Source: an uncultured Mollicutes bacterium (GTDB lineage Bacteria > Bacillota_I > Bacilli_A > ML615J-28 > CAG-313). From it: DNA of 64,000 nucleotides. How positions within the stretch are numbered: the stretch's first letter is position 1; every line of letters begins with the position of its first letter. Shown here in pieces: positions 238 through 997 of this stretch. A program made the position numbers and the translations under genes. The stretch spans positions 9,012 through 73,011 of the forward strand of contig URLJ01000001.1 in assembly GCA_900548675.1 (NCBI GenBank), given 5' to 3'. The notes beneath the pieces are model-generated. The model did no database searches, was not told the origin of the DNA, and worked only from the letters and a program-made list of their open reading frames with translations.

Positions 238-314
238 ATATATATAAATGAAAGAAAGAGAAGAAAAAATACAATATCGCGGGATGGAGCAGTCTGGTAG
301 CTCGTCGGGCTCAT

Positions 315-876
315 AGAAAATTGTGGCTCCATGTAGAAATACATAGATGAACTGTGGATGAATTCAGAGGAGGCTAAGTCTTTTGGAAAAGAAAATTATA
401 GGTTATGATGATGTATATACAATAGATACTAATGGTATTGTATATAGAAATGGTAAACCAATGTCCCCAAGGGATAATGGTATAGGTTATCAGCAAATAG
501 GATTGCGTTTAAATCGCAGACGATACAATGTTTATATTCACAGATTGGTTTGGGAAACTTTTAAAGGAGATATACCAAATGGATATGAGATTAACCATAT
601 AGACCATAATAAACATAATAATAACTTAGATAATTTAGAGTTAGTATCTCACTCTACCAATTTAAAAAAATCAGTAGAAAGATATGGATACTATGGTTCT
701 ATGAATAGACCAAAAGATATGCGAACTTTGAGCCAAGCCGAAGATACATCTTCGGAAGGTGCAGAGACTACTGGAGAGGTATAGTCCTCTTAATAACCAG
801 TTTAAGTATCCACTACCTAAGTCGTAAGATATGGTAAAGACATAGTCCACTCTATAATGAAAATTATAGGTAAGTA
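315..876 (+). mobile_element. Group-I-intron-like intervening sequence in the tRNA-Met anticodon loop, carrying an HNH homing-endonuclease ORF
   Basis: P5-like hairpin with GAAA loop (atgta-gaaa-tacat, about 338-351). R-like element gcagagactac (761-771) and S-like aagacatagtcc (838-848) could form P7 (gacta/tagtc). P9-like hairpin ctataat-gaaa-attatag (852-868). The exact splice junctions and omega-G could not be placed cleanly. Confidence 0.5.
383..784 (+). CDS. HNH homing endonuclease (HNH_3-type), intron-encoded
   Basis: YNVYIHRLVWETFKGDIPNGYEINHIDHNKHNNNLDNLELVSHSTN motif; the start may be the ATG near 404. Confidence 0.8.
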   Translation: MEKKIIGYDDVYTIDTNGIVYRNGKPMSPRDNGIGYQQIGLRLNRRRYNVYIHRLVWETFKGDIPNGYEINHIDHNKHNNNLDNLELVSHSTNLKKSVERYGYYGSMNRPKDMRTLSQAEDTSSEGAETTGEV

Positions 877-997
877 AACCTGGAGGTCAGAGGTTCGAGT
901 CCTCTCCCCGCAACCACTAGTAGTCCACAGCTACAATAAATAAATGTGCAGAGCTAGCGGATGGCATATGCAGTTTCATAGAAAATCCGCACTATAT

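Follow-up and report, generated by a model that had tools for sequence, protein, structure and literature searches.

Evidence for a mobile HNH-encoding group I intron ending in A in an initiator-like tRNA-Met gene of a large AT-rich phage

The locus at positions 278-916 (+ strand) raises the question of whether a tRNA gene whose two halves lie more than 500 bp apart is split by an intron that can be removed, or is a broken gene. It lies near the start of a 64,000-nt stretch of DNA (the window, meaning here the whole stretch that was analysed), which covers positions 9,012 to 73,011 of the forward strand of contig URLJ01000001.1 in assembly GCA_900548675.1, deposited as an uncultured Mollicutes bacterium. 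A sequence-only reading of the window had proposed an initiator-type tRNA-Met gene split by an HNH-encoding, group-I-like intron. The analysis supported a tRNA-Met(CAU) gene with initiator hallmarks, of which the anticodon loop is split by a bona fide group I intron. It is highly probable that this gene is the initiator-like tRNA-Met(CAU) of a large AT-rich phage seen in many metagenomes and that the insert is a mobile group I intron of 562 nt. This reading was built on the anatomy of the locus, the boundaries of the insert, covariation, presence/absence polymorphism and spread to several tRNA-Met genes. Related loci are referred to below by their L numbers, and the features of the locus are collected in Table 1.

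The 5' half of the tRNA gene, CGCGGGAUGGAGCAGUCUGGUAGCUCGUCGGGCUCAU at 278-314, showed 100% identity through CAU(A) with annotated tRNA-Met and bacterial-type tRNA-fMet 5' halves in a phage collection. The 3' half at 877-916 (AA-CCUGG-AGGUC-AGAGG-UUCGAGU-CCUCU-CCCCGCA-A-CCA) showed no difference, through CCA, from the corresponding half of the uninterrupted phage gene in either of the two loci compared base by base (L236 and L238). ARAGORN, and Rfam at gathering threshold, left the gene at 278-916 uncalled while calling 18-20 other tRNAs and a transfer-messenger RNA (tmRNA) in the window. With the exons joined from 314 to 877 (270-314 plus 877-930), ARAGORN called a tRNA-Met(cat). The mismatch at 1:72 that marks initiators was present as C278 × A912, and this position was unpaired in 11/11 related tRNAs. 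Both tRNA halves, and the C1-A72 mismatch, were therefore located as the sequence-only reading had them. The A11:U24 pair of the D stem is a criterion of bacterial initiator tRNA. It was found here, with a D stem (GAGC/GCTC) that was invariant in an alignment of 11 sequences in which the exon stems covaried among relatives. The three consecutive G-C pairs of initiators (29-41, 30-40, 31-39) were incomplete in the window, with G30-C40 and G31-C39 but G29·U41; the cognate phage allele has A29-U41, and all three G-C pairs were present in L186, L227 and L279. Immediately upstream, a weak match to the Staphylococcus small RNA (sRNA) S774 was recorded at 210-297 (38.1 bits, below gathering). A real S774-type sRNA was ruled out there, the model itself including the start of a tRNA-fMet gene and AT-rich promoter sequence. 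A promoter-like repeat unit, AAAATACTTGCATTTT(T)CC … TATA(A/T)T, precedes the tRNA gene (window ~78-120 and ~200-240; L244 4575-4625), and a simple sigma-70 scan made no call on it.

Comparison with the same locus in other phage contigs, a check that had been proposed with the sequence-only reading, showed it without the insert in six of them (L236-L239, L241 and L242). Across the insertion point the uninterrupted gene reads …GCUCGCCAGGCUCAU directly followed by AACCUGGAGGUCAGAGG…, with the junction GGCTCAT/AACCTGG; L242 reads GGCCCAT and differs in two exon bases. The order of the locus is five further tRNA genes, tRNA-Met, tRNA-Asn, tRNA-Thr and then a common downstream gene. L190 is an intron-plus allele with cognate exons, in which the exons of the empty alleles flank the 562-nt insert. 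The boundaries of the insert were set at 315-876 because of the empty alleles at the same locus and the filled allele L190, and the interruption of about 560 bp first described became one of exactly 562 nt. The register 316-877 can be read too, since A flanks both ends, and the final intron base is A in either register. Empty alleles were found at 6/8 places. A 5' splice site after U33, in the register of the cyanobacterial fMet.2Ug introns with a P1 of GGGCU/GGCUC, was rejected, as CAUAA is not what the 3' exon begins with and the junction of the empty allele falls after CAU. Pattern scans of IMG/VR for the 5' junction gave chance matches only, and a scan of IMG/VR with the 3' half, informative solely for the CCAGG/CCUGG stem type, gave ordinary phage tRNA-Met genes only. 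The INPHARED phage collection contained no relative of the intron region. A conserved sequence, CCTCCGGCTCATAGAACTTGTGGATGCCGGAGAG, recurs in many Oscillospiraceae genomes (L251, L256, L262 and ~25 other loci); it is a non-tRNA sequence that matched the search pattern by chance.

The fold of the insert was examined in an alignment of 11 sequences, comprising seven intron lineages down to ~66% identity and four extra exon contexts. The proposed partners paired in 96.4% of cells, compared with 33-43% when partners were slid, and 35 pairs showed changes on both sides compared with at most 8 in the slid controls. None of 500 shuffles reached the observed pairing or covariation values. The Rfam model RF00028 (Intron_gpI) matched the window at 618-869 with E=7e-9, below its gathering score. 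The covarying core bears out the group-I-like elements that had been proposed. The Rfam alignment placed P3-P5 on 618-720. This placement was rejected, as that stretch is coding sequence and the true 5' strands lie at 354-386, upstream of the open reading frame (ORF); the 5' strands of P3, P4 and P5 were placed by homology with a phage tmRNA intron (L039) and with ORF-less relatives of 241-245 nt (L260 and L279). Judged from these alignments, the element is a complete group I intron with a predicted P1-P9 core. The four pairs of P1 were retained in 11/11 sequences, and the helix has its homologs in the P1 of Yba21.fMet.5Ug and in that of tmRNA introns. The guanosine-binding site, with G764-C848, bulged A765 and G766-C847, is canonical and was unchanged in the seven lineages aligned. 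Of the two GAAA-capped hairpins previously named P5 and P9, the second was correctly assigned and the first, at 331-344, is P2, whereas the R-like and S-like elements thought able to form P7 correspond to its two strands at 764-770 and 843-848. The P7.1/P7.2 extension, and sequence similarity in Williams' alignment to tRNA and tmRNA introns of the IA type, point to subgroup IA and not IC3. To the alternative that the locus holds a free-standing HNH gene between unrelated tRNA fragments and no intron, which had been named as the outcome that would overturn the intron reading, we give practically no credence. Free-standing HNH homologs do adjoin tRNA-Met genes in other phages (L231-L234), but in the window the flanks join into a single exact tRNA, the core of the insert is complete and covarying, and there are alleles from which precisely the insert is missing.

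Table 1. Coordinates of the split tRNA-Met gene, its intron and the intron-encoded ORF in the window. Pairing and covariation figures refer to the 11-sequence alignment.
Feature	Position	Strand	Remarks
tRNA-Met(CAU) 5' exon, tRNA positions 1-36	278-314	+	acceptor 278-284, D-arm 287-303
tRNA-Met 5' exon, anticodon part	305-314	+	stem 305-309; C32-U36 = 310-314
Group I intron, 562 nt, between tRNA nt 36 and 37	315-876	+	empty alleles, RF00028, covariation
P1	311-314 / 323-326	+	U33 C34 A35 U36 with G326 G325 U324 G323; loop 315-322
P10	321-322 / 877-878	+	U321 U322 with A878 A877; UA pairs in 10/11 and 11/11
P2 hairpin, GAAA loop	331-344	+	5/5 pairs changed on both sides
P3	354-360 / 807-813	+	7 pairs, 100% paired, 2 double changes; J3/4 AAU 361-363
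P4	364-369 (UCAGAG) / 726-731	+	97% paired, 3 double changes, e.g. UCGGUG/CACCGA in L230
Shine-Dalgarno AGGAGG of HNH ORF	368-373	+	within P4/J4-5/P5; 9 nt upstream of TTG at 383
P5	373-374 / 721-722	+	with P5a closes ORF-holding loop; J5/4 GAA 723-725
P5a	378-386 / 710-718	+	covariation alignment; ORF in its loop
HNH_3 homing-endonuclease ORF, 133 aa, TTG start	383-784	+	I-HmuI-like; sits in P5a loop
P6	732-734 / 758-760	+	covariation alignment
P6a hairpin	738-744 / 749-755	+	double changes in 6/7 pairs, 100% paired
P7	764, 766-770 / 843-848 (UAGUCC)	+	5' strand invariant in 11/11; matches P7 columns of Williams' alignment
P7.1/P7.2 extension hairpin, UAAUAA internal loop	771-800	+	100% paired, 3 double changes
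P8 hairpin	814-836	+	94% paired
P9.0	849-850 (A849 C850) / 874-875 (G874 U875)	+	covaries: AC/GU in window type, AG/CU in all other lineages
P9 hairpin, GAAA loop	852-869	+	double changes in 5/7 pairs
3' tail GUAAGUA	870-876	+	G874-U875 in P9.0; A876 = omega, last intron nucleotide
tRNA-Met 3' exon, positions 37-76	877-916	+	A37 A38, stem 879-883, variable AGGUC
tRNA-Met 3' exon, remainder	889-916	+	T-arm 889-905, acceptor 906-912, A73, CCA

The intron ORF matched Pfam PF13392 (HNH_3) with E=2.1e-17 and 62.9 bits against a cutoff of 24.8, in agreement with the HNH_3 endonuclease first read there. Its residues 3-100 aligned to residues 4-103 of I-HmuI (PDB 1U3E) with E=5e-7, and H72, D74, H75, N79, N80, N84 and N93 of the HNH motif were invariant in 12 homologs. 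Free-standing homologs end at ...GSMNRPK, which gives a functional part of ~110 aa, and the last ~23 codons of the ORF were for this reason taken as read-through over P5a', P4', P6 and P7. In the ORF-less relatives L260 and L279 a short GAAA-capped P5a stands in place of the ORF. From their positions in the predicted fold, the ribosome-binding site (AGGAGG, 368-373) and the start codon (TTG, 383) should both be hidden in the folded intron.

At the 5' junction U314·G323 forms the canonical U·G wobble of group I 5' splice sites, which was kept in 11/11 sequences and agrees with the boundary given by the empty alleles. The 3' junction showed no terminal G, the last intron base being A876 (A877 in the alternative register). 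A876 was assigned as omega because it is the next base after the covarying P9.0 and stands before P10 (A877-A878), consistent with the empty alleles. The U/omega-G junction that the sequence-only reading had been unable to place is therefore canonical in its 5' part, and the doubt about its 3' part was justified. Omega was A in ~15 distinct relatives, ORF-less copies included, and G in one. A was found in the window type, L217, L221, L223, L227 and L230, in the ORF-less L260 and L279 and in nine more metagenomic tRNA-fMet copies (L302, 306, 307, 311, 312, 314, 316, 319 and 326), and G only in L226, which is nested beside L221. Overall, omega-A was stable over ~30% intron divergence. The homologous base is G in L039 and in Pam37.Asn.4Ug. 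L039 (~6650-7323, - strand, of IMGVR_UViG_3300042387_002461) is a phage tmRNA of which the T-loop is interrupted by a homologous group I intron, with the layout AGGGG UGCGAU/…GUAAGUG/U CCCCU CGCCUCC ACCA (tmRNA partial, 35.8 bits). Its 3' junction, …GUAAGUG/U, was set by T-loop logic and literature and restores the T-loop UGCGAUU at 'position 7', the usual one in tmRNA; ARAGORN found no tmRNA in the joined L039 candidates. L042 and L062 have related cores, in protein genes with an extra P9.1, and were set aside as uninformative on the 3' end.

G874 was also considered as omega and rejected, since it gives loops of 9 nt, 8 nt or with CUA, is absent from other lineages and is paired in P9.0. A particular form of this assignment is splicing from C312 (-1) to G874 (omega), which would produce a CUCUAAA loop and an amber-suppressor tRNA(CUA). 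With 312 joined to 875, ARAGORN does return a 7-nt loop with anticodon CUA, and tRNA introns with C at -1 are known as a class (Leu.3Cg). Nevertheless we hold this product to be very improbable, as the tails of the other lineages lack a G there (AUAACUA, GUAGCUA), G874 is held in the covarying P9.0, C312 would leave P1 only 2 bp and the empty allele reads CAU. TAG is moreover an ordinary stop in the window, ending 12/43 long ORFs, and no signal of TAG recoding was found there, a sense reading of TAG adding little coding coverage.

With A876 as the last base, removal of the intron would proceed as follows. The intron RNA would fold as an IA-type ribozyme, P1-P9 with P7.1/P7.2, and exogenous guanosine would attack after U314, held as the U·G wobble with G323 in P1. 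P9.0 (849-850 / 874-875) and P10 (321-322 / 877-878) would then position the 3' splice site after A876, and exon ligation would give a normal CUCAUAA anticodon loop, the junction of the spliced tRNA-Met reading GGCUCAUAACCUGG. From the conserved anatomy, productive splicing with omega-A appears fairly probable. A wider statement, that a diversified natural group I clade, found in tRNA-Met genes of phages and in one or more bacterial chromosomal tRNA-fMet genes, ligates its exons with a terminal A despite a canonical G pocket, the site being set by P9.0 and P10, would in our judgement be right or wrong with about equal chance.

Several points weigh against an intact intron that splices. The RF00028 score on the window was 40.8 bits where the gathering score is 50 bits, a shortfall that was attributed to the ORF splitting the core; the related L221 scored 50.7 bits, the ORF-less L260 86.1 bits and the tmRNA intron L039 66 bits. 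The window tRNA has an A7·C66 mismatch plus G29·U41 and U27·G43 wobbles, which were ascribed to exon halves that are non-cognate (see below). The G-binding pair G766-C847 shows no compensating change for omega-A. The Tetrahymena mutant G414A is said to behave like ligation-blocked omega mutants. Omega G-to-C mutants of tRNA introns pile up the intron-3' exon intermediate (PMC13011429). In addition, phage tRNA genes may be dispensable, so that the spread of the intron is no proof of splicing.

A rival reading is a ligation-defective selfish intron, in which omega-A blocks the second step, the phage tRNA-Met is knocked out and copying by the HNH endonuclease maintains the element in dispensable tRNA genes. 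Omega-G was required in tested introns and the G-binding pair is unaltered; initiator tRNA is available from the host, a further tRNA with the anticodon CAU is encoded in the window (15283-15359), and intron-less alleles are common, as the 6/8 places show. We consider such an intron unlikely, although far from negligible. Omega-A is constant over the ~30% divergence, and P9.0 and P10, which are relevant to the second step only, are conserved or covarying. ORF-less copies, which are no longer able to home, retain an intact core and omega-A, and one of them lies in a bacterial chromosomal tRNA-fMet. The Coxiella burnetii 23S rRNA intron Cbu.L1917 reportedly ends in A. According to the title of its report, this natural intron self-splices though it 'lacks the canonical omegaG'. 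Unlike the window type, a diversified clade in tRNA genes that supplies comparative evidence, it belongs to another subgroup, lies in an rRNA and is a single-species case. Joining of the tRNA halves by nearby RNA-ligase genes was also considered and discarded, as no evidence was found for it and omega would have to be bound in the same way for 3' hydrolysis.

A separate question is whether the two exons of the window belong together. Pairing is perfect when the window 5' half (TCGGG stem, acceptor CGCGGGA) is combined with the L188 3' half, and likewise when the window 3' half (CCTGG stem) is combined with the 5' half from L188 or L190. Positions 1-277 and the 5' exon belong to another phage lineage than the rest of the window, and the exon halves are joined somewhere inside a shared block of 573 bp. 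We lean slightly towards an assembly chimera, in which the assembler crossed within this identical block from two phages in one sample; this concerns only the partnership of the exon halves and not the existence of the intron. Both reciprocal chimeras were found on one low-coverage contig (ERZ1311789 NODE_71, 144.6 kb, cov 6), which appears to consist of ~4 kb of a 'U2' context, ~117 kb of a common phage genome and ~23 kb of a 'D2' context, U2 and D2 being of another lineage; positions 1-277 of the window are part of this foreign flank. The common phage assembles elsewhere at 115-118 kb, other contigs have U2 and D2 directly on either side of an uninterrupted tRNA-fMet, and the L243 contig breaks inside the intron. 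However, the product would look no different if co-infecting phages had recombined homologously through their intron copies, and the tRNA of the normal U2 locus (L244) differs in sequence from the window 5' half. Overall, the simplest reading of the window exons is that the assembly ran through the intron block of 573 bp that the two lineages share.

Search of public assemblies showed the exact HNH protein in 176 blocks and the protein encoded directly downstream (1440-1772) in 205 blocks. The block 308-880 was identical to that of the window in L187, L188 and L190 and had two differences in L186. The host genes were of anticodon-stem types TCGGG/CCCGA (L186), TCAGG/CCUGA (L187, L191) and CCAGG/CCUGG (L190, L192), in different genomic contexts, and nearly the same intron was thus present in four or more distinct tRNA-Met genes of phages. 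Filled and empty alleles coexist at one locus. The near-identical copies in these genes suggest that the intron is actively mobile, and the I-HmuI-like HNH_3 endonuclease would be predicted to cut intron-less tRNA-Met genes of co-infecting phages and so lead to homing. Outside phages, L279 (6986-7345 and 7577-7933, - strand) carries an omega-A intron of the ORF-less 241-245-nt class in the chromosomal tRNA-fMet of a Clostridia metagenome-assembled genome (MAG), with housekeeping genes (PBP5-type carboxypeptidase, LytR, ComEA-like) as neighbours. A phage-integrase gene lies immediately downstream of this tRNA-fMet, which may be an integration site. The surroundings of phage tRNA-Met genes were seen to be a hotspot of homing endonucleases (L187 2547-2906; L217 746-1126; L218 433-1002; L188 3561-3842; L231-L234), with NUMOD4+HNH_3 genes just upstream and a GIY-YIG gene just downstream. 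In L231-L234 free-standing homologs of the intron HNH protein stand beside uninterrupted tRNA-Met genes.

Among known systems, introns at 36/37 of bacterial tRNA-fMet (fMet.5Ug, e.g. Yba21.fMet.5Ug) have been described (Williams 2020 preprint). They share with the window intron the site after U36 of CAU, a near-identical P1 (GCUCAU/A.GAAA.UUGUGR) and U-1 in a U·G wobble. Those in Saccharibacteria/Patescibacteria MAGs ended in G in 12/12 cases. Most fMet.5Ug introns measure 187-260 nt, with two of 381 and 640 nt, and Yba21, the one examined with a full alignment, has no P7.1/P7.2 extension. The window intron, in contrast, lies in a phage and is of the IA type with P7.1/P7.2; it encodes an HNH protein and has A as its last base. 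The cyanobacterial tRNA-fMet intron (I-Ssp6803I), to which the sequence-only reading had looked for a precedent, is likewise of group I, encodes a homing endonuclease and interrupts an initiator-tRNA anticodon loop, but it proved to be no close relative, with site 33/34 (fMet.2Ug), a PD-(D/E)XK endonuclease and omega G as against 36/37 and HNH_3. The four classical tRNA intron types, the cyanobacterial tRNA-fMet intron included, are listed as subgroup IC3. The Azoarcus tRNA-Ile(CAU) intron (Ile2.5Ug; Aol6.Ile2.5Ug) also follows CAU, with a P1 of CAU/GUG and a short P10 formed with AA; it differs in being IC3, without an ORF, with omega G and bacterial.

By sequence comparison, the closest relatives are the IA-type tRNA and tmRNA introns (Patescibacteria tRNA-Asn/Asp 35/36, tmRNA T-loop, Pam37.Asn.4Ug). 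They share the core, P7.1/P7.2 with a UAAUAA-type loop, a GAAA-capped P9 and the (A/G)UAAGUG tail, and differ in the gene or site, in omega G and in HNH genes of PF01844 instead of HNH_3. The phage tmRNA intron L039 aligns with the window intron from P1 to the 3' end. For the protein, the nearest system compared was I-HmuI, the HNH nickase of the SPO1 DNA-polymerase intron, which is also phage intron-encoded and shares the N-terminal DNA-binding sheet and the HNH core. Residues ~104-174 of I-HmuI form a C-terminal helix-turn-helix DNA-binding domain. The window protein is without this C-terminal part, and its host gene is a tRNA and not a polymerase gene. HNH-bearing IA introns in Patescibacteria tRNA-Asn and tmRNA T-loop introns were already known. 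A 2014 review (PMC3984707) placed all phage group I introns then known in protein-coding genes, despite the many phage tRNA genes, and a literature search found no later report of a group I intron in a phage tRNA gene. Phage tRNA introns are rare, in line with the sequence-only reading, and introns with omega-A are rare too. What is new is the combination of a phage tRNA host, an HNH_3 gene in P5 and a clade-wide omega-A, the insertion site having already been described in bacteria.

Other observations were made in the window and in related contigs. A tmRNA with the tag ANEVLMAA followed by a stop lies at 26853-27189 (-), a skipping-rope RNA (RF02924, 45.7 bits) at 16468-16618 (-) and a tRNA called by Rfam and not by ARAGORN at 13001-13068 (-). 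The tRNA-rich region also holds an RNA-ligase-like ORF (phrog_968) at 9806-11080 (-) and a DUF2828/DUF7788 ORF (phrog_850, 'RNA-binding protein') at 21272-22789 (-). RNA-ligase genes of PF09414 were also seen in L186 and L187, at 1.5-2 kb upstream of the tRNA that carries the intron. Finally, the viral contig L062 (1-11257) is intron-dense, with at least five RF00028 matches (27.9-109.6 bits) in 11 kb and a sixth related core with an upstream ORF, adjoining a helicase-like reading frame.

The locus shows that phage tRNA genes are also targets of group I introns, with homing in progress as judged from empty and filled alleles and from nearly the same intron in several tRNA-Met genes. For sequence analysis, a 573-bp identical mobile block in co-occurring phages can yield chimeric contigs, and tRNA finders miss such split genes, which makes counts of phage initiator tRNAs too low. 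Tools that map tRNA introns reward omega G and would mis-map or reject the omega-A clade. Omega-G has been held to be essentially universal, and the clade is either a natural exception to it or a large family of ligation-dead selfish introns. If the omega-A introns do splice, the identity of omega would be dispensable in nature, and the close A/G relatives L221 and L226 would form a ready-made test pair. If the reading as a whole is true, this would be, to our knowledge, the first group I intron family shown to be homing among phage tRNA genes.

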